Part shown: positions 5,725 through 24,889 of the stretch, one piece after another
Position numbering within the stretch: position 1 is the first letter of the stretch
Layout: every line of letters begins with the position of its first letter
Virus record (IMG/VR): IMGVR_UViG_3300032290_001086
Length of the DNA stretch: 64,000 nucleotides
From: a virus
Taxonomy: Duplodnaviria; Caudoviricetes
Strand: one strand, 5' to 3'
Program-made: the position numbers and the translations under genes
The notes under the pieces: model-generated
The model's database searches: none
Told to the model about the DNA's origin: nothing
The model's input: only the letters and a program-made list of their open reading frames with translations

Positions 5725-5884
5725 TGAATCTTTACTTTTATTTTTTAGTTACTGTAGCTTTAATCTGTTATCTTTGTGTTATAGATTCAAATGTAACAGA
5801 TTGGATTAATATTAAAATTAATCATTTTTTAGTTTATCTTCAACTTCAATATATAAAAATGAAGTGGAAGTTTAAACGTTTCTA

Positions 5885-5966
5885 GGGTAGGTGTCCGAGT
5901 GGTTAATGGAGGTGGACTGTAAATCCACTGGCTCTGCCTACGGGGGTTCAAATCCCTCCCTGCCCA
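5885..5966 (+). tRNA. tRNA-Tyr(GUA)
   Basis: GGGTAGG/CCTGCCC acceptor, GTGGA-CTGTAAA-TCCAC anticodon arm, GGTTCAAATCC T arm. Confidence 0.97.
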
Positions 5967-5970
5967 TCTC

Positions 5971-5999
5971 TTGATTTTTTCTTTGCCGTGTGCTATGAT
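5971..5999 (+). promoter_or_regulatory. sigma70-type promoter
   Basis: TTGATT, 17 nt, TG-extended TATGAT. Confidence 0.6.
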
Positions 6000-6026
6000 A
6001 TGCAGGCATAGAAATCTCATACCAAA

Positions 6027-6263
6027 ATGGATGTAGTAATTTACAGTAAGGAGAACTGCCCTTACTGCGACAAAATTAAAACTGTTTTTAATATTCAAAA
6101 TATTAAGTTTGTAGAATACAAACTAGACCAAGATTTTACCCGAGAAAATTTTATCTCTGAATTTGGAGTAGGGTCTACTTTTCCTAGGGTTATTATTGAT
6201 GGCACGTTGATTGGTGGTGCTTCGGAAACTGTTCGTTATATTCAGGAGAACAATCTAGTATGA
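6027..6263 (+). CDS. nrdC: Glutaredoxin
   Basis: CPYC active site, TFPRV, IGG. Confidence 0.92.
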   Translation: MDVVIYSKENCPYCDKIKTVFNIQNIKFVEYKLDQDFTRENFISEFGVGSTFPRVIIDGTLIGGASETVRYIQENNLV

Positions 6264-6970
6264 ATGCCGTATGTGAAATTTCTTCTTTCATTGATATACT
6301 GATTGATGACTTTGTAATTAATCGAAAGAAGCCTAAAGCAAATTTTATTAAATTTCTACACTCTGAAAATATTGATAGGAGAACTATTAATACCTTTGTA
6401 GAAACTAAGTCTGATTACATTGAATCTCAAATCAAAGAACTTGAACTAGCTATGAGTGGGTTGGACCCTCAAGTTAAGGAAGGTTATGGAAATTTTAGAA
6501 AGCCAGAACTTAGAGAATTCAAAGAAATGCTTGAGCAGATTGTAGATGATTTGTATTCATATAAAGATAGCAAACGAATTATTCGCAAGAGAAGGAATAT
6601 ATCTCCAGACAAACTCATTAAGTACATGAAATTGTATGAGACTGAGATTGAGATTGGTGGTCTTCCATACAAGACTCTTTCTGCAACTGAAATCATAAGT
6701 GCTAAACATGTGTTTCTTTATAATGTAGAAACTAGAGAACTTACATATTATACTGGAAGATGTCTAGGTGTAAAGCGTACTATGGTTACTGGATTTGATT
6801 CTGAAAAATCATGGGTTCGTAAACTGAGAAAGCCTGAGGAATTTCTACCAGAAGTTAATTCTTGTACAAAGTATAACATTGAACATATGAGTGGTCATCT
6901 TACTACTAAACCAAAGGTTCCTACAGGAAGAACTAATACAAAACAAATTATTCTCAAGGTAGTTAAATGA
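6260..6970 (+). CDS. Conserved T4-like cyanophage hypothetical protein
   Basis: 236-aa ORF; LRKPEE…PTGR.N C-terminus; ATGA coupling. Confidence 0.8.
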   Translation: MNAVCEISSFIDILIDDFVINRKKPKANFIKFLHSENIDRRTINTFVETKSDYIESQIKELELAMSGLDPQVKEGYGNFRKPELREFKEMLEQIVDDLYSYKDSKRIIRKRRNISPDKLIKYMKLYETEIEIGGLPYKTLSATEIISAKHVFLYNVETRELTYYTGRCLGVKRTMVTGFDSEKSWVRKLRKPEEFLPEVNSCTKYNIEHMSGHLTTKPKVPTGRTNTKQIILKVVK

Positions 6971-7134
6971 GTTCAATTCCAGAAAAGTACCTAAATAAAA
7001 ATGTAAGAGCAATGCTAAGTGGGAGGAGACAGACTTTTCAACAAAAGCCTAGCTTCCATTTTTCTAAGGTAGTTTCATTTCTTCAAAAAATCTACCGAGT
7101 GGAAGTTAAAATCTTCATTCAGGATAATACTTAG
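6967..7134 (+). CDS. Hypothetical protein (55 aa)
   Basis: MSSIPEKYLNKNVRAMLSGRR…; ATGA overlap with upstream stop. Confidence 0.55.
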   Translation: MSSIPEKYLNKNVRAMLSGRRQTFQQKPSFHFSKVVSFLQKIYRVEVKIFIQDNT

Positions 7135-7155
7135 AAACGGTAGAGGAGTAGAACC

Positions 7156-7392
7156 ATGTCAAGCTTACTAGTTCTAATTTCAGTTTTAGCGGTTGGTTTT
7201 GTTTTAATAGGTATGAGTTTTATGGTTGGGATGGTATTTGGATGGTTCGCTAATGAATATTTTAATCCTGTTACATCTGGAAACCCTAGTTCACATCCAG
7301 AAATGTATGATGAAAATGGAAACTACATTACTGAAGAATTAATTGCTGTTCGTTTTGAAGAAGAAGAGGATGAGGATGATGACGAGGATTAA
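7156..7392 (+). CDS. Membrane protein with acidic tail
   Basis: N-terminal TM helix, HPEMYDENG motif, GAGGAG RBS. Confidence 0.8.
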   Translation: MSSLLVLISVLAVGFVLIGMSFMVGMVFGWFANEYFNPVTSGNPSSHPEMYDENGNYITEELIAVRFEEEEDEDDDED

Positions 7393-15927: not shown

Positions 15928-16356
15928 TTAAAGGGAAAATTTTCTCCTAGAAATATTCATAAGTACAGAGGTGATTATAGAAATATAATTTACAGATCTT
16001 CATGGGAACTTAAATTCATGAAGTATTGCGATGAAAGAGCTACTGTACTTGAGTGGGGAAGTGAAGAAATAGTAATTCCTTATAGATCTCCTTTAGATAA
16101 TAGAATTCACAGATATTTTGTCGATTTTTATGTGAAAATAAAAGATTCAAATAATAACATTACAAAATATTTAATTGAGATTAAGCCAAAAAAACAAACA
16201 GTAGAACCAAAGATTTCAAACAGAAAAACAAAAAGTTACATTTATGAAGTAACTGAATACGTAAAAAATCAAGCAAAGTGGTCTGCGGCTGAGGATTTTT
16301 GTCGAGATAGAAATTGGAAGTTTATGATACTCACCGAAAAGGAATTAAAGGTATGA
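15919..16356 (+). CDS. gp4: Head completion protein gp4 (TnsA-endonuclease-like)
   Basis: YRSSWE, WGSEE..IPY, HRYFVDF, IEIKP, NQAKW. Confidence 0.92.
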   Translation: MSTLKGKFSPRNIHKYRGDYRNIIYRSSWELKFMKYCDERATVLEWGSEEIVIPYRSPLDNRIHRYFVDFYVKIKDSNNNITKYLIEIKPKKQTVEPKISNRKTKSYIYEVTEYVKNQAKWSAAEDFCRDRNWKFMILTEKELKV

Positions 16357-16955
16357 CATCATCTTTCAGAAATATGGTTCCACGATCTCCTTCCAATATA
16401 AGAGGAGGAGATAATATAAGTACTGGATTTGGTACTCCAGATCTTAGTGGTAATATTTTTTCAGACGTTAAAAAATTAGCCAGAGGAAGAGAAAGAAGCT
16501 ATTCTTGGTATCGTGATACAATAAGGATGGTTTCTAAGAAAAGTGATATTTACAAAACCTTATCTACTTGTAATGAAACTCTATCTCCAGTTGGAAGTAA
16601 ATTATATTTTTTTGAATATAATGCAACCTGGGCAAAAAAATTAAAGTATTATGATGAGTTTCCTTTAGTATACATGCTCCAGGGGGGACCAAAATTTTTT
16701 GGAGCTAATTTACATTATCTTACATATGCAAGAAGAGTTCAAGTAATAGAAAGTATTTTGAATGGAACACCAACAATTCCTAAACAGTGCTTTCATAATT
16801 ATGTTTATGAAGGTCTTGAAACACCATTATTTGAAATAAATACTGATGATTGGAAAACCGCAATCTTCATACCAAATGAAAGTTTTGTTACAAGGAGAAG
16901 AGGATTGTATCAACGAGTAAGTAAGTCTTTTGTTTGGGGAGATAGTAGCCAATGA
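16353..16955 (+). CDS. gp2: DNA end protector gp2-like (ATG 16353 preferred)
   Basis: YFFEYNA…L.YYDEFPLV…F.GANLHYL. Confidence 0.8.
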   Translation: MTSSFRNMVPRSPSNIRGGDNISTGFGTPDLSGNIFSDVKKLARGRERSYSWYRDTIRMVSKKSDIYKTLSTCNETLSPVGSKLYFFEYNATWAKKLKYYDEFPLVYMLQGGPKFFGANLHYLTYARRVQVIESILNGTPTIPKQCFHNYVYEGLETPLFEINTDDWKTAIFIPNESFVTRRRGLYQRVSKSFVWGDSSQ

Positions 16956-17794
16956 CAACTAGAGCTTTTGATAGAAATATTGGAACTCTTAAAGAGTTCA
17001 AGTCTTATGTATCTAAATTTGGATACAGTATTAATAACTTTTATGATGTTCATTTTGACTTAACCAATTCCACTGGAGTTTTAAATAATATACTCAAAAG
17101 AGTTCCTGGGGGTGGTCAGCCAAATGCCAATGATCCATCCAACATGACTGGATTGATGAGATTCTATGCAGAAGAATGTTCTATTCCAGGATTTCAAATT
17201 TCCACAGGAGAATATCGTATTAATAATTCTCCCCAATTAAAATATGCATATGGAATTGTAAATAATGAAATTACATTTTCATTTATTGGGGATGCAAATT
17301 CAGAGATTAGAAAAACTTTTGATGCATGGCAAAGTTATATCTATGCACACAATGTTCCAAATTCACGACAAGCTACATCAGGAGTTTTAAATGTAAATCG
17401 CAAGCAAAATTTAGGCAGAACTAGATATAGAGATGAATATGTTACTGATATTTTAGTTGTCAAGTTTGAAAAAGCTAATCAATTTGAGGTTACTAGTAAA
17501 GGTAATACTATATTAAGTGATTTAGAAAGATCTGGAACATATATGAAATCTACTGACATAATTCCAGATTATAAACCAAAATCTTTACAGGAGAATATAA
17601 GTAATTTTGAAAAAGCAAAACCATTATATTCTGTACGATTAATGAATGCATTCCCTACAAATATTTCTTCAATCGGACTTTCTAGTGGTGCTTCAGAAAT
17701 TGTAAAAGTGCAAGTTACATTTGAATATGAGACTGCAGTTACAAGTGCCCATAATAATGGAACCGTACAAGGAAGCATAGAAACAATTATCTAA
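16952..17794 (+). CDS. Tail tube initiator / tube-like protein (gp54/gp19 family)
   Basis: CSIPG, IRK.FDAWQ, L.NAFPTNISSI.L…V.VTF.YE. Confidence 0.7.
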   Translation: MTTRAFDRNIGTLKEFKSYVSKFGYSINNFYDVHFDLTNSTGVLNNILKRVPGGGQPNANDPSNMTGLMRFYAEECSIPGFQISTGEYRINNSPQLKYAYGIVNNEITFSFIGDANSEIRKTFDAWQSYIYAHNVPNSRQATSGVLNVNRKQNLGRTRYRDEYVTDILVVKFEKANQFEVTSKGNTILSDLERSGTYMKSTDIIPDYKPKSLQENISNFEKAKPLYSVRLMNAFPTNISSIGLSSGASEIVKVQVTFEYETAVTSAHNNGTVQGSIETII

Positions 17795-17836: not shown

Positions 17837-18547
17837 ATGCCTTTACCAAAATTAGTTGCCCCAACATATGAGTTGGAACTTCCTTCAACTGGAGATACAA
17901 TTAAATATAGACCATTTCTAGTAAAAGAAGAAAAAATTCTTCTTCTTGCTATGGAATCTGAAGATGAAAAACAAATGACCAATGCAGTGAAAACTATTTT
18001 AAAGAACTGCATTTCTTCAAAAATTAAAGTAGATGATTTAGCAACATTTGATATCGAGTATCTATTTTTAAATATTCGTGCAAAGTCTGTTGGAGAAGAA
18101 ATTGAATTAAATGTTCCATGTCCAGATGATAATCAAACTGTGGTTCCAGTTAAAATTAATGTAGAAGATATTAAGGTACAAAAATCAAAAGATCATAATA
18201 GAATTATTGAATTGAATGATTCGGTGTCTGTAGTCATGAAATATCCTAGTATGGAAACTTTTGTGAAGACTAATCTTTCTTCTAATGGAACTGCAGAAGA
18301 TGTATTTGAAATTGCTGCATCTTGTATTGAGCAGGTTGTAGAAGGTGAAGATGTATATGAAACCAAGAGTTTCTCTAAAAAAGAAATTAATGATTTCCTT
18401 GATAGCTTAGACACGGCACAGTTCTTAAAAATTCAACAGTTTTTTGAAACTATGCCAAAACTTTCTCACACTATTAAAGTGACAAATCCAAATACTGATG
18501 TTACAAGTGATGTAGTAATTGAAGGTCTAGCAAGTTTTTTCGCATAG
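17837..18547 (+). CDS. gp26: Baseplate hub assembly protein gp26
   Basis: MPLPKL..PTYELELPS…YRPFLVKEEKILL, FDIEYLFLNIRAKSVGE, EGLASFF. Confidence 0.92.
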   Translation: MPLPKLVAPTYELELPSTGDTIKYRPFLVKEEKILLLAMESEDEKQMTNAVKTILKNCISSKIKVDDLATFDIEYLFLNIRAKSVGEEIELNVPCPDDNQTVVPVKINVEDIKVQKSKDHNRIIELNDSVSVVMKYPSMETFVKTNLSSNGTAEDVFEIAASCIEQVVEGEDVYETKSFSKKEINDFLDSLDTAQFLKIQQFFETMPKLSHTIKVTNPNTDVTSDVVIEGLASFFA

Positions 18548-18729
18548 CCCTAGCTCATGAAACCTTAGAAAATTATTTTAGAATTAATTTTATATTGATA
18601 CAACATCATAAGTGGAATCTAAGTGAGCTAGAATTAATGATACCATGGGAACGAGAAGTTTATGTTCAAATGTTAATTGATTATATTGAAGACGAAAATA
18701 ACAGACAAAAAACAACGCAGTCATTATAA
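18535..18729 (+). CDS. gp51: gp51-like hub assembly segment, in -1 frame to gp26, lacking a proper start (probable frameshift extension; not in ORF track)
   Basis: RIALAHETLENYFRINFILIQHHKWNLSELELMIPWEREVYVQML; frame opens after TGA 18520-18522; first TTG 18595, first ATG 18637. Confidence 0.8.
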   Translation, partial: FFRIALAHETLENYFRINFILIQHHKWNLSELELMIPWEREVYVQMLIDYIEDENNRQKTTQSL

Positions 18730-18732
18730 TAG

Positions 18733-21700
18733 ATGGCACAACTCAAACCTTCAATGAAATCATTTGGCCAAGCATTAACTGGTCAAAAATTAAAATCCTC
18801 TTATATTAATCAATCAGCTTTTACTTCAAGTACTGCTGTAATGAGTGCTCCTGGAATGTCAACACCAGGAGCATTTTCTGCTGCAGAGTTAGGTGAATTA
18901 TCTTCCATTAAAAAGAATTTAGTTTCGTTGGTTGCCATCGAAAAAAAGTATAATGATTTTCTTGGTGATAAAATTATAAAATTTGCAAGATCAGAAGAAA
19001 GAACAAAACTTAAAAAGAGAGAATCTTCACAAGAAACCAAAGATAAAACAGAAAAGAAAGCAAAAGTTAATCCTGTTGTAAAAGGAGCCATGAAAGGTCT
19101 TGACGGACTTGTTGGCTTTTTTGGAGATTTATTTAAATGGTTTATTGGATATAAAATTGTAGAGTGGGTATCAAAACCAGAAAATTTAAAAAAGATTCAA
19201 GACTTTGCTAAATTATTTGTAGGAATATTTAAATTTATTAGCAACGTTGTAGGATTTGGCGTTGACAAAATAATGTCAGGTCTTAGCCATTTAGTTGATG
19301 GTGGTGGAATTACAAGAGTATTTGGCGCTCTTGAAATGATCGTTGGATTCTTCACTTTAAAGTGGTTATTGAATCCGACCAAAATAATTTCTGATATTAA
19401 AATGATCGGGACATTATTTACAAAAATAATTCCGAACGCAATTAATGGAGTATTAAATTTCTTTACTAATTTAATACCTTCAGTTGCAACACAAGCTGTA
19501 GATACTGCAGTAAACGAAGGGTTGAAAGGAGCAGCTGCTGCAGGAACAGAAGCTGTTAAAACCGCTGCAGGACAGGTCACAGAGCAGGCAGCAAAGTCTG
19601 GAGGCAAAGCAGCAGCAGAGGGTGCTGCTAAGGGTGCTGCAAAAGGAGCAGGAGCAGTCGCAGCAAAAGGTGCCGCAAAGGGAGCAGCCAAGGGTGCAGG
19701 TAAGTCGTTACTGAAAAAACTTCCTGTTATAGGAGCAGTCACAGGAGGAATCTTTGCAGTAGATAGAGCATCTAAAGGTGATTGGGTTGGAGCTGGGATG
19801 GAGGCTGCATCTGGTGTAGCTTCTTTGTTACCTGGATGGGGAACTGCAGCATCAATAGGTATTGACGCAGCATTGGTAGCAAGAGATCTTGCCAAGGAAA
19901 AGGAAAAAGAAGATAAAAAAATTCCAAAATTAGCAAAAGGTGGTATTGTAACTAAACCTACTAAAGCAATAGTAGGAGAAGCTGGACCAGAAGCAATTCT
20001 TCCTTTAGATAAATTAACTTCATTTACAGGAAAAGGTATTGAATCAGATGTAGGAAAAATAATTCCTAAATTTATGAAGATGTTGACGATTCCTTTCACT
20101 TTAGTTGGTGCTGGAATTATTGCATTAATGTCATCTTCATTAGCAGTAATTCCTGGCATCGGACCATTGATGCTGCCATTGATTTCTAGTATTGCTTCCA
20201 CTTTTGGCATTCCTCCTTCTATAGTTAAAGGAGTATCCAAGTTTGTAAAAAATCCAATAGAAGCAGTAAAGGGAGGAGCTAGTAATATATCTAAATTGTT
20301 TGGGGATACTTCTCCTAGAGTATCAAAACAAAAGGGAGGAAAATTTACCCCATCAAACGATACTTCAGTTAGAGGATTGCTTGCTAATATTTTGGGAGCA
20401 TTGGCAAGTAAAAATTCAGATCAACCAGTACCAAGTACACCTTCACCTTCTGGTGGATCTCCTTCTGGTGGATCTCCTTCTGGTACTGGTGGTTCAAGTC
20501 CTCCTCCAGGAGCAGGTACAGCAACTGCCACGGACAATGCAAAAGAATCAATAAAAAAGGCTGGTGGATTGCGAGAGGATGGAACTCTGAAAGGAGTTCA
20601 AGGTACTTTTATAGACAAGGGTAGGGGAGGAAAAGAATATTCTCCTGGAGGTGGTCTAAAAGCAGTAATTAATGGAAACCGAAAGTATTGGTATGATGCT
20701 ACTGGAAATGTATTTAAATGGGAAAAACCAGGAGATCCTTTAACAGATATTACATCAACTAAATTATTTGATTCAAAAACTTTAGGAGGTCCATTAGTAA
20801 GAATTCCTAGCACAGGAGAAGTTAAAATTCTAAAAGGATTGTTTGGTGGAGATCAAACTGCAGTTGGAATGTATAATTATGCAGTAGGTAAAGTATTAAA
20901 ATCTAGACCTACGAAAGGACCCAAAGGAACATCTGGTTCGGATGTTTGGGAAGCTCCAACTGAAGGAATTTATGGAAAACCTGCAAAATTTAATAGTGGT
21001 GGTAGAGTAAAGGGCTCTGGTATTGGAGATAAACAGCCTGCATTACTTGAACCAGAAGAGTATGTATTGAATAAAAATTTAGTTAAAGCTATGGGTGGAC
21101 CGAAGGTTTTAGATCCTTTAAATTTCAATCTTCATCCTAGATTTGGTACATCTAAAATTGCACAGATTCAAAGAAATGAAGAAAAAGCAAGTGGTGATGG
21201 AAGACCAAGAACAAGAATGCTTCAAATTGGAGGAGCAGCAATATTAGAAGGTGCGAAAAAAATAGCTGGAATGGGAAAGGGACAAGGTAATATGTGTGCC
21301 GCAACCACCAGAGCTGCATTAAGAGCTGCTGGACATCCTGATGCAGGAAAGGTTACTCAGAAAGGGGATTTAGACGCAGAAGGAACAAAATACAATGGAG
21401 TTAATTTTGCTGCATCTTTTGCAGGAAGTGATATGGGATCTATTATTAAAAATACTTCAGGATTGCAGGCTGGTGATGTTGTGTTGTGGAAAGGAGGAAA
21501 TGGTTATCCTTCTGGGGCTATTACTCACGTTGGTATTAAAGGAGAAGGAAATGATCTTTGGCATCATGGCAGATCAGCTGGATTTAGAAAAGCTAGTATG
21601 TACACTAGTTCTGGAGGACAGACATTTGCAGCAGGAGTAAGATTAGGAGGAACTGGTACTGTAGGTGGTGGTCCTGGATCTACTTCAGAAACCCAAGAAT

Positions 21701-22044
21701 CTGAAGTTTCTTGGGCAGATATTACTAAGAGTTTAGGAAGTTTATATAAAGGTTTAACTGGAACTCCTTCTCAAACAATTCCTCCTGCTCCTACGTTACC
21801 TCTTGCTCCTGCTCCAACCACATCTATTCCTTCATCATCTACTAGATTACAACAAGCACAACAAACTTCAAATCAAAATAAAGCAACACAACAAGCTTCT
21901 ACAACAAAACCATCTGGAGGTAATGTAGTCAGTCTTTCTCAAGGAACTAATGTAATCAATCAAACTCAGGTTGAAACTTTAGCTCCAGCTCTTGGAAATA
22001 CTATTCCTCCCACACCTTTAACTGTATTCCCTGCAACTCCATAA
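18733..22044 (+). CDS. Tape-measure/hub-like protein with C-terminal CHAP/NlpC-P60-like peptidoglycan hydrolase
   Basis: Amphipathic repeats, GGIVT.PT.A.VGEAGPEAILPL, MCAATT…QAGDVVLW…THVGI. Confidence 0.7.
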   Translation: MAQLKPSMKSFGQALTGQKLKSSYINQSAFTSSTAVMSAPGMSTPGAFSAAELGELSSIKKNLVSLVAIEKKYNDFLGDKIIKFARSEERTKLKKRESSQETKDKTEKKAKVNPVVKGAMKGLDGLVGFFGDLFKWFIGYKIVEWVSKPENLKKIQDFAKLFVGIFKFISNVVGFGVDKIMSGLSHLVDGGGITRVFGALEMIVGFFTLKWLLNPTKIISDIKMIGTLFTKIIPNAINGVLNFFTNLIPSVATQAVDTAVNEGLKGAAAAGTEAVKTAAGQVTEQAAKSGGKAAAEGAAKGAAKGAGAVAAKGAAKGAAKGAGKSLLKKLPVIGAVTGGIFAVDRASKGDWVGAGMEAASGVASLLPGWGTAASIGIDAALVARDLAKEKEKEDKKIPKLAKGGIVTKPTKAIVGEAGPEAILPLDKLTSFTGKGIESDVGKIIPKFMKMLTIPFTLVGAGIIALMSSSLAVIPGIGPLMLPLISSIASTFGIPPSIVKGVSKFVKNPIEAVKGGASNISKLFGDTSPRVSKQKGGKFTPSNDTSVRGLLANILGALASKNSDQPVPSTPSPSGGSPSGGSPSGTGGSSPPPGAGTATATDNAKESIKKAGGLREDGTLKGVQGTFIDKGRGGKEYSPGGGLKAVINGNRKYWYDATGNVFKWEKPGDPLTDITSTKLFDSKTLGGPLVRIPSTGEVKILKGLFGGDQTAVGMYNYAVGKVLKSRPTKGPKGTSGSDVWEAPTEGIYGKPAKFNSGGRVKGSGIGDKQPALLEPEEYVLNKNLVKAMGGPKVLDPLNFNLHPRFGTSKIAQIQRNEEKASGDGRPRTRMLQIGGAAILEGAKKIAGMGKGQGNMCAATTRAALRAAGHPDAGKVTQKGDLDAEGTKYNGVNFAASFAGSDMGSIIKNTSGLQAGDVVLWKGGNGYPSGAITHVGIKGEGNDLWHHGRSAGFRKASMYTSSGGQTFAAGVRLGGTGTVGGGPGSTSETQESEVSWADITKSLGSLYKGLTGTPSQTIPPAPTLPLAPAPTTSIPSSSTRLQQAQQTSNQNKATQQASTTKPSGGNVVSLSQGTNVINQTQVETLAPALGNTIPPTPLTVFPATP
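20446..20484 (+). repeat. 15-nt tandem repeat (2.6 copies; PSGGS linker)
   Basis: CCTTCTGGTGGATCT x2 plus CCTTCTGGT. Confidence 0.85.
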
Positions 22045-22045
22045 G

Positions 22046-24889
22046 ATGGCTATTTCTTCACCAATAAAACCATCTCCATTTTTAGTACCTGCAAGGCTTA
22101 AAGAACTTAAAGCCATAAATGTTTTGTCTAAAAAATTATATGAACATAAAAGAGATAGATTTTTGTTAGAGAAACGTTTATATAAACTTGAGCAAAAATC
22201 TCTAGAGAAAAGACAACTACAAGAAAGAGAGTCTTCTCAAGAATCTAAGAAAAAATTATCTTTAAAATCATCTGCTAAAAGATTTGTAAGGAATAAAGCA
22301 GTTGGATTAGGATCATTTTTATTTGATTTATTACAATTTTTTATTACGTATAAAGTAGTAGAATGGGTATCGAAACCAGAGAATAAGAAAAAAGTTTTAG
22401 CTATTACTAAAGCATTAAAGGGAATTTTTGATTTCCTTAGCTGGTTTGTGACTGGAACTATAGACAATGCATTTAGTGGATTGCATAGTGTTTTATTTGG
22501 AGAAACTTTATTAGAAAGATTTTTAGGATTTTTTAAATTAGTAGTAGGTCTTCTTGGATTTAGATACTTACTGCGTCCTGGAAAACTGTTTAAAGATTTA
22601 GGATTTGTTATAAAAAATAGTGGTAAAATATTAGATGTATTTACCTCTTTTAGAAAAGCTGGAATAAAAGAAGGGTCTGAAAAATTATTACAAACTCTTC
22701 CAAAAACTGCAGAAGTTTTCAAAAGAGGATTAACCAGAGGAATTACAAGAGGACTACTAAAGGTATTTGGAAAAGGTGGAGTTAGATTATTATCAAAAAT
22801 ATTTGGACCTGCTTTTAGAGCAGTAAAAAATATCATACTGGGTCCAATTAAAACTTTTGCAAAAACAACTGTAAAGGGTATTCCTATTGTAGGACCTTTA
22901 TTAGATCTCGGAATTAATTTAGCTTTAGGAGATCCAATAGATAAGGCCATTGTAAAGGCTGCAGGTTCTGCATTAGGAATGGGTCTTGGTGGATTGATAG
23001 GATCCGCATTCCCAGGACCAGGAACTATAATTGGTGGAGCTTTAGGAGGATTACTAGGAGATTGGGCTGCAGATAAATTATATGGATGGGTGAAAGGATT
23101 ATTTAATAAGAAAGAAGAAAATACTCCGCAGTTAGCAGTAGGAGGTATTGTAACTCAACCAACTAAAGCAATAATTGGGGAAGCTGGTCCTGAGGCAGTA
23201 ATTCCATTACCACAACTATTTTCTGGATCTATATTTTCTGCTCCATTAGCAGTATTAGCATCGTCTTTGATTGGCGGTATTAATGCAGTATTATTTTCTA
23301 TGGGAGCAGTTGGTAATATTATAAGACCATTTGCTCAACAATTATTTGCACCTTTTGTTAGAGATTTTGGTATCAAACGATTTACATTTTCTTCTAAGTT
23401 AGGAAACACTGTAATAGATGCTGCCACATTAACAACGAAAGCTAGTGCTAAAGAAGGAGATGATACAAAATTAAATGATATTGTTGGAAAAAATAAAAAA
23501 GTAAACTTATTAGGAGATAAAAAATCTGATAAAAAGATTAGATATAATGCTGGAAATAGTATTAGAGAATTACTTGCAGATATATTCAATAACATAATTA
23601 ATTTAGATTTTAATTCTGGAACTGCTACGCCAGGGGGAGGCGGTGGCGGTGGCGGTGCAGATCAAGCATTGACTGCGGCAGAATTGGATGCCATTAAAGC
23701 TTCATCTGCAGATAAAAGAGCTGCCGCACACCTTGCTACACTTGAAGCATCTGCACCTCAACATGTCGCTGATGTATATCAAGTAATTTTAAATCGAGCT
23801 GCTGGACAAAGTGGAGGTATTCCTTCTGTTATTACCGCAAAAGAACAATTTTCTCCTTATTCTGCTGCAATATATGGTGGTAGTGCTGATGATGCAGCAT
23901 CAAAAAAATATGGAGGACTTGGGTTAACTAAAAAAGAATTGTTTGATTTGGCAGGAAAGTCAGACGGAATTCAACAATTAACAAATAGATTCCAAGCTGG
24001 TAATCCTAAAGTTGCAGCTCAGGTATTATCTGATTTTGAAAAGAATGGACCACTATCACAAAATGCAAAGAAATTTGTTGGTGGTTCTCAGTATTTTATG
24101 GGATATAAAGTTACGGGAAACGATAGAAGAAGACCAGATGGAGGAAATTGGTTTAGAGATAGATACCAAACTGGAGGTGTAGTTGCTACTCAAGGACATC
24201 CAGATACTGGTCCTGGATATACAATACAAGGTACTAATGATGTAAATGGAAGACCAGTTGTATTCTCTCGGGATGCTGCTTTTGGATTTGCAAAAATGAT
24301 GAAAGATTCTGGTGGAGTAGTTAAAGGAACTGATATTGCAAGTAGTAAGAGAAGCCCTAAAAAGAATACTGATGTGCGTGGAGCCACAAGATCCAAACAT
24401 TTATATGGAATTGGCATGGATATTCATGGGTCCTCAAAAGAATGGATTAAAAAGAATGGTGGAAAGTATGGATGGAACTGGGCTCCATATGGTGGTCCTG
24501 GAGATCATGGGGGACACTTTACATTTGGAGGTCAAGGAATTCAGCCATCAGACGTACCTTCACAAAATCAAGAATCCCCTGCAAGTGATACTGGAACTCC
24601 AGAAGTTTCTTGGGGAGAGATTACAAAAAATCTATCTGATTTATATAAAGGATTGACAGGAACTCCAAAAACTAATGGAGCTGCATTGCAACGTAGTAGT
24701 ATGGATATGATTCAAACTCAACAAATGATTACAACTGCATACAGCTCAGATACATATATTATAACTCCTCCAACTACTATAGCAAGTACAGTAAATGTAG
24801 TAGGACCATTACCACAAAATACACCTAGTATGAATACTTCATTTGCATATCTTGATAGTTCTTCCAGTTACCTTCATAGTAGACTATAA
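22046..24889 (+). CDS. Second tape-measure/hub-like paralog with SleB-like (Hydrolase_2) and peptidase M15-like domains
   Basis: VYQVILNR…VIT..EQFS; RS…SKHLYG.GMDI…H.F; shares motifs with upstream gene. Confidence 0.7.
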   Translation: MAISSPIKPSPFLVPARLKELKAINVLSKKLYEHKRDRFLLEKRLYKLEQKSLEKRQLQERESSQESKKKLSLKSSAKRFVRNKAVGLGSFLFDLLQFFITYKVVEWVSKPENKKKVLAITKALKGIFDFLSWFVTGTIDNAFSGLHSVLFGETLLERFLGFFKLVVGLLGFRYLLRPGKLFKDLGFVIKNSGKILDVFTSFRKAGIKEGSEKLLQTLPKTAEVFKRGLTRGITRGLLKVFGKGGVRLLSKIFGPAFRAVKNIILGPIKTFAKTTVKGIPIVGPLLDLGINLALGDPIDKAIVKAAGSALGMGLGGLIGSAFPGPGTIIGGALGGLLGDWAADKLYGWVKGLFNKKEENTPQLAVGGIVTQPTKAIIGEAGPEAVIPLPQLFSGSIFSAPLAVLASSLIGGINAVLFSMGAVGNIIRPFAQQLFAPFVRDFGIKRFTFSSKLGNTVIDAATLTTKASAKEGDDTKLNDIVGKNKKVNLLGDKKSDKKIRYNAGNSIRELLADIFNNIINLDFNSGTATPGGGGGGGGADQALTAAELDAIKASSADKRAAAHLATLEASAPQHVADVYQVILNRAAGQSGGIPSVITAKEQFSPYSAAIYGGSADDAASKKYGGLGLTKKELFDLAGKSDGIQQLTNRFQAGNPKVAAQVLSDFEKNGPLSQNAKKFVGGSQYFMGYKVTGNDRRRPDGGNWFRDRYQTGGVVATQGHPDTGPGYTIQGTNDVNGRPVVFSRDAAFGFAKMMKDSGGVVKGTDIASSKRSPKKNTDVRGATRSKHLYGIGMDIHGSSKEWIKKNGGKYGWNWAPYGGPGDHGGHFTFGGQGIQPSDVPSQNQESPASDTGTPEVSWGEITKNLSDLYKGLTGTPKTNGAALQRSSMDMIQTQQMITTAYSSDTYIITPPTTIASTVNVVGPLPQNTPSMNTSFAYLDSSSSYLHSRL

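Follow-up and report, generated by a model that had tools for sequence, protein, structure and literature searches.

The window considered here is the whole of a 64,000-nucleotide stretch of DNA from a cyanophage-like virus related to phage T4 (Duplodnaviria; Caudoviricetes; IMG/VR record IMGVR_UViG_3300032290_001086), which carries on its plus strand, at 17837-18547, a gene for a protein resembling gp26 of phage T4. The sequence of this gene and of its relatives makes it very likely that two proteins are produced from it by a programmed -1 ribosomal frameshift close to its 3' end. Most ribosomes would read AGU UUU UUC GCA and stop at UAG, giving a short form of 236 amino acids (aa), and a fraction would slip back by one base with two phenylalanine tRNAs on U UUU UUC (18535-18541), read on through CGC AUA GCC and add 62 residues, giving a long form of 297 aa. 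The long form would consist of the first 235 residues of the short form followed by a gp51-like helical module, and the two are proposed to be a tail/hub assembly chaperone pair, with phage lambda G/GT and T4 gp26 (short) and gp51 (long) as counterparts, that would act on the tape-measure-like proteins encoded directly downstream.

The short product, read here as a tail assembly chaperone of the TAC-N type, gives a full-length match to PF12322 (T4_baseplate; E 2e-75; residues 9-236 against profile positions 2-219 of 219) as well as a match to phrog_150 (E 2e-83), and its gene ends GCA AGT TTT TTC GCA TAG. Within this end the slippery heptamer T TTT TTC stands at 18535-18541 in the X XXY YYZ register with the gp26 open reading frame (ORF), and the 0-frame stop, TAG (18545-18547), is found one codon 3' of it. 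The -1 frame is closed by a TGA at 18520-18522, so that any shift must come after this codon, which sets its 5' limit; the frame opens at 18523 and stays open as far as a TAA at 18727-18729, reading RSSKFF-RIALAHETLENYFRINFILIQHH.... The 0 and -1 frames overlap by just 25 nt (18523-18547) and the heptamer lies inside the overlap. The -1 extension itself (18541-18729, 62 codons and the TAA, plus strand) matches phrog_634, "baseplate hub assembly catalyst" (E 5e-27), and also the last 47 positions (230-276) of phrog_150, the gp26 profile (E 6e-5). The predicted junction peptide of the fusion is ...ASFFRIALAHETLENYFR. In the window, the -1 frame has no canonical start until TTG 18595, which is 18 codons past the slip site and 3' of a conserved H..LE.YF..NF block, before which there is no ATG, GTG or TTG. 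The original prediction, which was made from the window alone, had pointed to the heptamer at the end of gp26, to a -1 frame opening at 18523 that encodes the gp51-like segment and stops 3 nt before a tape-measure-like gene, to a conserved block preceding any TTG or ATG and to products of 236 aa and about 297 aa; the sequence, the ORF list and the phrog_634 match bear all of this out, the long product being 235 + 62 = 297 aa.

Conservation of the arrangement was followed in two samples. Sample 1 consisted of 80 IMG/VR loci (gp26 55-82% identical) together with named phages and held 85 distinct junctions; sample 2, seeded with gp26 of phiM12, was more divergent (30-40% identity) and gave 77 informative loci with 61 distinct junctions; a scan of viral contigs seeded with KVP40 returned just two loci. 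An in-register T TTT TTN was present at the gp26 end in 92 of the 94 loci of sample 1, and an in-register T TTT TTY in 77 of 77 in sample 2. The gp51-like segment was in the -1 frame in 80 of the 82 informative loci of sample 1 and in 77 of 77 in sample 2, and the same arrangement is found in the finished genomes of syn9, HTVC008M, KVP40, PX29, phiM12, pf16, ACP17 and RHph_I1_18. The original prediction had made much depend on whether TTTTTT(C/T) and the -1 register are conserved or the relative frame varies among homologues, and these counts come down on the side of conservation. The T-run is exactly six nucleotides long in 82/85 junctions of sample 1 and 52/61 of sample 2 (134 of 146 distinct junctions), longer runs being rare, and the distance from the heptamer to the 0-frame stop is exactly one codon in 81/85 junctions of sample 1 and 0-8 codons in sample 2. 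RHph_I1_18 (locus L093, 1899-1935) has T TTT TTA as its heptamer and a 0 frame that continues for 9 more codons to its stop, so the tight spacing of heptamer and stop is not universal.

The choice of codons at the site goes beyond what its protein sequence demands. The codon before the two phenylalanines is AGT, TCT, AAT, GCT or GAT in sample 1, specifying four amino acids and always ending in T, and over both samples it is invariably NNT (codons for S, N, A, D, T and H), against a background share of T-ending codons, in those codon families of the same genes, of 0.69 (sample 1) and 0.52 (sample 2). Similarly, the first phenylalanine codon is TTT in all junctions, against backgrounds of 0.71 and 0.66 respectively. 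Two controls are available. A second conserved Phe-Phe pair inside the gp26 genes is written with mixed codons and T TTT TTC occurs there in 0/84, and the terminal Phe-Phe of T4 gp26 is kept but is written GAG TTC TTT, which is not slippery. A conserved Phe-Phe by itself thus does not force the heptamer.

An important consideration is whether the -1 codons are translated from the heptamer onward, and several observations on the alignments suggest that they are. The first -1 codon specifies arginine (CGN) in 75 of the 85 junctions of sample 1 and is followed by I/L/V and S/A/G; conservation of this arginine also accounts for the C with which the heptamer ends in 81/85. An alignment of 37 sequences is gap-free over the 90 columns after the heptamer. 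The variability at -1-frame codon positions 1, 2 and 3 was 0.79, 0.65 and 1.21 bits over the 18 codons that precede TTG 18595, and it is greatest at the third positions of this frame from its first codon onward. Independent initiation of gp51, which the original prediction had set against its own reading, finds no ATG, GTG or TTG ahead of the conserved block in the window, and the closest relative (L005) has TTA at the position of TTG 18595. Of the 61 distinct junctions of sample 2, 43 lack an ATG, GTG or TTG before the conserved H..L motif, and in many of them a -1-frame stop is located only 0-5 codons upstream of the Phe-Phe, so that entry into the frame is pinned to the heptamer. A search by tblastn within the 64-kb window for a second PF12322/gp51-like copy that might supply the long form, as happens in T4, found none.

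The comparison with T4 (NC_000866.4, gene regions 5803-6429 and 6480-7229) gives these two forms a meaning. A paralogue of T4 gp26 (208 aa), T4 gp51 (249 aa) consists of a complete PF12322 domain (residues 1-201, E 4e-52) and a C-terminal tail matching phrog_634, the match to that family covering residues 147-246. It aligns end to end, including the gp51-type module, with a natural 297-aa gp26-gp51 fusion (L033, discussed below), and where the C-terminus of T4 gp26 reads ...RGLKEFFELL, T4 gp51 reads straight through the equivalent junction. This colinearity implies that the "gp51" of cyanophages corresponds to the C-terminal module of T4 gp51 only, and that it is the predicted product of the shift to which T4 gp51 as a whole truly corresponds. 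The short form of the window, like T4 gp26, is a full PF12322 protein, and the predicted long form, like T4 gp51, would be a PF12322 domain carrying a Y..NF...H..YSL.E.E.M.P.ERE module. There are also differences, in that the two forms of T4 are the products of separate, divergently transcribed paralogous genes, whereas the long form in the window has no gene of its own and would need recoding, and in that T4 has genes 27 and 28 between 51 and 29, whereas the pair in the window is directly 5' of the tape-measure-like genes. Both T4 proteins are assembly factors that are not found in the virion (review, PMC3004832).

Structural models point in the same direction. An AlphaFold model of the L033 fusion (pLDDT 82.7) has a confident domain at 1-235, a disordered linker at 241-247 and a three-helix C-terminal module. 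When an AF2 model of residues 1-100 of the window gp26 (pLDDT 82.6) was aligned to 48,161 PDB representative chains, the top three were all tail assembly chaperone-type structures, namely 3fgx (a tail assembly chaperone structure; Z 7.8, rmsd 3.1, 80 aligned), 2ob9 (HK97 tail assembly chaperone, gp10; Z 7.4, rmsd 3.5, 83 aligned) and 3klu (YqbN; Z 7.2, rmsd 3.6, 85 aligned), the next row being at Z 4.9 and unrelated rows beginning at 4.4. Foldseek with the same N-domain also placed 2ob9 first (probability 0.80, E 0.13); run against the PDB with the whole 297-aa model it returned nothing meaningful, and the searches with the N-domain alone were the informative ones. The Z values are moderate, but the three chaperone structures stand clear of the rest and align with most of the domain, and the modelled fold of the N-domain may be taken as support, not proof, of a chaperone-like protein.

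The organisation of the locus resembles that of lambda G/GT. In both, the tape measure gene is immediately preceded by two overlapping ORFs, of which the first has an X XXY YYZ heptamer towards its 3' end and the second, in the -1 frame, has no start of its own; the two products, which in the window are predicted ones, have their N-terminal part in common. Phage P2 likewise has a T-rich heptamer. Differences from the classical chaperones are that gp26 is about twice their size, with an extra domain at residues ~90-235, that it has no detectable sequence similarity to lambda G, and that the 0-frame stop in the window comes one codon after the heptamer. The chaperone frameshift of long-tailed phages has been described by Levin et al. 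(1993) and by Xu, Hendrix and Duda (2004), and the E/E+E' system of P2 by Christie et al. (2002).

That ribosomes do slip here is an inference, as are the efficiency of the putative shift and the elements acting on it. Two candidate stimulators can be named, the 0-frame stop next to the heptamer and a GAGG-like motif 5' of it. The glutamate codon of a conserved E-G-L is GAG in 63/85 junctions of sample 1 and GAA in 16, compared with 31% GAG in the rest of the gene; in sample 2 GAGGGN is present in 33/61 junctions, with GAG outnumbering GAA by 33 to 7 (33/40; background 30%). In most relatives the choice of GAG at this position places the end of a GAGG 10 nt 5' of the heptamer, and the motif overlaps the conserved Glu-Gly. 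In the E. coli dnaX gene a -1 frameshift is promoted by a Shine-Dalgarno-like element 10 nt 5' of A AAA AAG together with a 3' hairpin. The likeness to dnaX lies in the spacing and in the synonymous-site bias towards GAG, and the difference in the lack of a conserved 3' hairpin among the relatives and in the window's own motif, a weaker GAAGG (18521-18525, plus strand) that ends 9 nt upstream of the heptamer. A Shine-Dalgarno-like role for the 5' GAGG is therefore no more than a candidate one, unproven, given its overlap with the conserved Glu-Gly and the weaker form in the window.

A broader proposal can be made only tentatively, and as a whole we hold it to be rather doubtful: that the frameshift is ancestral across the T4 superfamily (cyanophages, pelagiphages and vibrio, aeromonas, rhizobium, pseudomonas and acidovorax phages), that T4 gene 51 is a derived duplication, and that the shift is driven without a 3' structure by the stop and by a GAGG held 10 nt upstream by synonymous-site selection.

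A number of observations weigh against a programmed frameshift. The case is built on sequence and models, and the fusion is a predicted protein. TTTTTTC occurs 36 times in the AT-rich window where 33.5 occurrences are expected, so its frequency alone is at chance level and the weight of the heptamer derives from its position, register and conservation rather than from its frequency. The loci are phylogenetically related and the counts do not represent independent events. RNAalifold on the 37 sequences gave no pairs, and hence no conserved 3' stem-loop or pseudoknot, and the window's own RNA fold is not unusual (z-score -1.3). In sample 1 an ATG at the fourth -1 codon is the first start in 50 of 85 junctions, which leaves room in those phages for a small gp51 made separately as well. 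In S-SCSM1 (L001, MK867354.2, 2205-2404), the closest named relative, T TTT TTC is kept at the end of gp26, but the gp51-like segment is in the +1 frame, which is open through the T-run and has its own ATG, and the -1 frame runs into a stop after 4 codons; a genuine +1/-2 or slippage variant, a gp51 with its own initiation and a 1-nt error of assembly are all conceivable. The distant relative Vibrio phage K475 (L094, OZ196443.1, 1102-2105) reads ACG CTT TTT GCG TAA without a heptamer, and the ATG of its gp51-like ORF overlaps the gp26 stop (TAATG), which suggests that in this lineage a free small gp51 may be made by translational coupling. On the evidence of these phages, certain lineages may have a functional small gp51 in free form.

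If there were no recoding at all, the gp51 of ~60 aa would be a separate protein, re-initiated after the gp26 stop and from a non-canonical start in the window, and the T-run would simply reflect Phe-Phe and AT-rich codon usage. This explanation draws on S-SCSM1 and K475, in which gp51 is apparently made from its own ATG, on the many cyanophage GenBank records in which a small gp51 is annotated, and on the methionine at the fourth -1 codon in 59/85 junctions of sample 1 (in the 50 just mentioned it is the first start, close to the gp26 stop). However, that column alternates between methionine and leucine (59 versus 22 in sample 1, and mostly leucine in sample 2), as would a hydrophobic position, and the three codons before it are conserved as protein (R, I/L/V, S/A/G). 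Moreover, the internal Phe-Phe and T4 gp26 show that Phe-Phe does not force a heptamer, T4 gp51 shows the module working as a C-terminal extension of a gp26-like domain, and neither the window nor the 43 of 61 sample 2 junctions offer a start before the conserved residues. Independent initiation cannot explain the window, although it is possible in some relatives, and as a general account of the locus it is judged very improbable.

Transcriptional slippage, in which the polymerase would add one U on the T6 run so that a subset of mRNA encodes the same 297-aa fusion in a single frame, is suggested by the fact that the signal is a homopolymeric T-run and by S-SCSM1, which keeps that run with its extension in the +1 frame, since either frame could be reached by gain or loss of a U. 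Efficient slippage by bacterial polymerases occurs on runs of ~8-9 or more, whereas the run is just six T in the window and in the 134 of 146 junctions noted above. It is, in addition, always in the X XXY YYZ register, the 0-frame stop hugs it, and the Shine-Dalgarno-like GAGG enriched at synonymous sites 10 nt upstream would be a signal at the level of the ribosome; the PRFect paper, in the passage concerned, takes the "other mechanism" of 2022 as two separate genes and not as slippage. Slippage by the polymerase accordingly seems quite improbable. Finally, the gene might really be continuous and the break in frame the result of a recent inactivating indel or of an error in sequencing or assembly. 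A natural in-frame fusion does exist: L033 (IMGVR_UViG_3300049043_000112, 1501-2394) encodes 297 aa on a 236-kb viral contig and has the junction TCT TTT TGG TTA GGA ATG, without a slippery heptamer and equivalent to a 2-nt deletion relative to its neighbours, and unless this junction is itself an assembly error the phage would make the long form only. Such fusions are rare, with 12 fused singleton proteins in a collection of 5.8 billion proteins; the junctions of these singletons vary from one to the next, and several appear to reflect a frame error further upstream. The same break, heptamer and frame, by contrast, recur in about 157 of the 159 informative loci, which were assembled independently of one another, and in finished genomes of several families, and an error is scarcely credible as the explanation.

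The genes around the proposed frameshift site form a T4-type tail/hub module on the plus strand, which starts with a DNA end protector gene (16314-16955). This is followed by a tail-tube-like gene (gp48/gp54/gp19-like; 16952-17794), which matches PF23849 Phage_TTP_2 (E 2e-11) and phrog_45 tail tube (E 5e-31) and lies directly 5' of gp26, as it does in S-SCSM1, HTVC008M, KVP40, phiM12 and PX29. The order tail-tube-like, gp26, tape-measure-like is common to eight named relatives. Downstream, the ATG of the first tape-measure-like gene (18733-22044, 1103 aa) lies at 18733, 3 nt after the -1 stop. Its product matches long PHROG families annotated "endolysin" or unknown and also phrog_10093, tail length tape measure, and its homologues in HTVC008M, phiM12 and RHph_I1_18 are annotated as tape measure proteins; BLASTP of the 1103-aa protein against T4 gp29 gave no significant similarity, and it is called tape-measure-like here on the strength of the weak phrog matches and the annotation of its homologues. 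The second gene (22046-24889, 947 aa) encodes a paralogue of the first (31% identity over ~460 aa of the N-terminal part, E 1e-35) with tape measure matches to phrog_10093 and phrog_12798. The two proteins have in common the motif GGIVT.PT.AI.GEAGPEA..PL and differ in their C-terminal halves, and the second carries a weak Peptidase_M15 match. NCBIfam gave no family for any of the proteins, and the local copy of Pfam contains no model for the -1 extension. PF28602, which this copy lacks, appears on the gp51-like extension of fused proteins in precomputed domain lists.

Parts of this picture appear to have been published already. Vladimirov, Gautam and Davidson (Virology 2022, 566:9) are cited as having identified T4 gp26 and gp51 as the tail assembly chaperones of T4-like phages. 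According to the summary in the PRFect paper, they found that a short gene and a longer, fused one take the place of a frameshift in some T4-like phages, and PMC12846349 names them as the source for -1 frameshift signals of the poly-T kind in TAC-N genes of such phages. To judge from these citations, the chaperone pair, the two-gene solution of T4 and the poly-T signals in relatives thus appear to be on record. The original prediction had recast gp26 and gp51 as analogues of G and GT; the analogy itself holds up well, being supported by the colinearity with T4 gp51 and by the chaperone-like N-domain, but as a recasting it had been anticipated in the literature. As far as could be seen, the synonymous-site evidence for a 5' GAGG, the lack of a 3' structure and the variants S-SCSM1, L033 and K475 are unreported. 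What is added here are the controls (the internal Phe-Phe, the T4 Phe-Phe codons, the frame counts and the fold match) and a possible 5' stimulator.

In the GenBank records of S-CAM1, S-MbCM7 and S-BM3 (L085, L086 and L087) the gp51-like segment is unannotated and a gap of ~180 nt separates gp26 from the next gene, and no frameshift join was seen in the GenBank records opened for relatives. A programmed frameshift at this site would mean that there is an annotation problem in hundreds of genomes of cyanophages and other T4-like phages, in which the small "gp51" has been called from an arbitrary internal start or omitted. It would also provide a sequence-level reason why T4 has seemed to be an exception to the near-universal frameshift in tail chaperone genes, its two forms having been split into genes 26 and 51.

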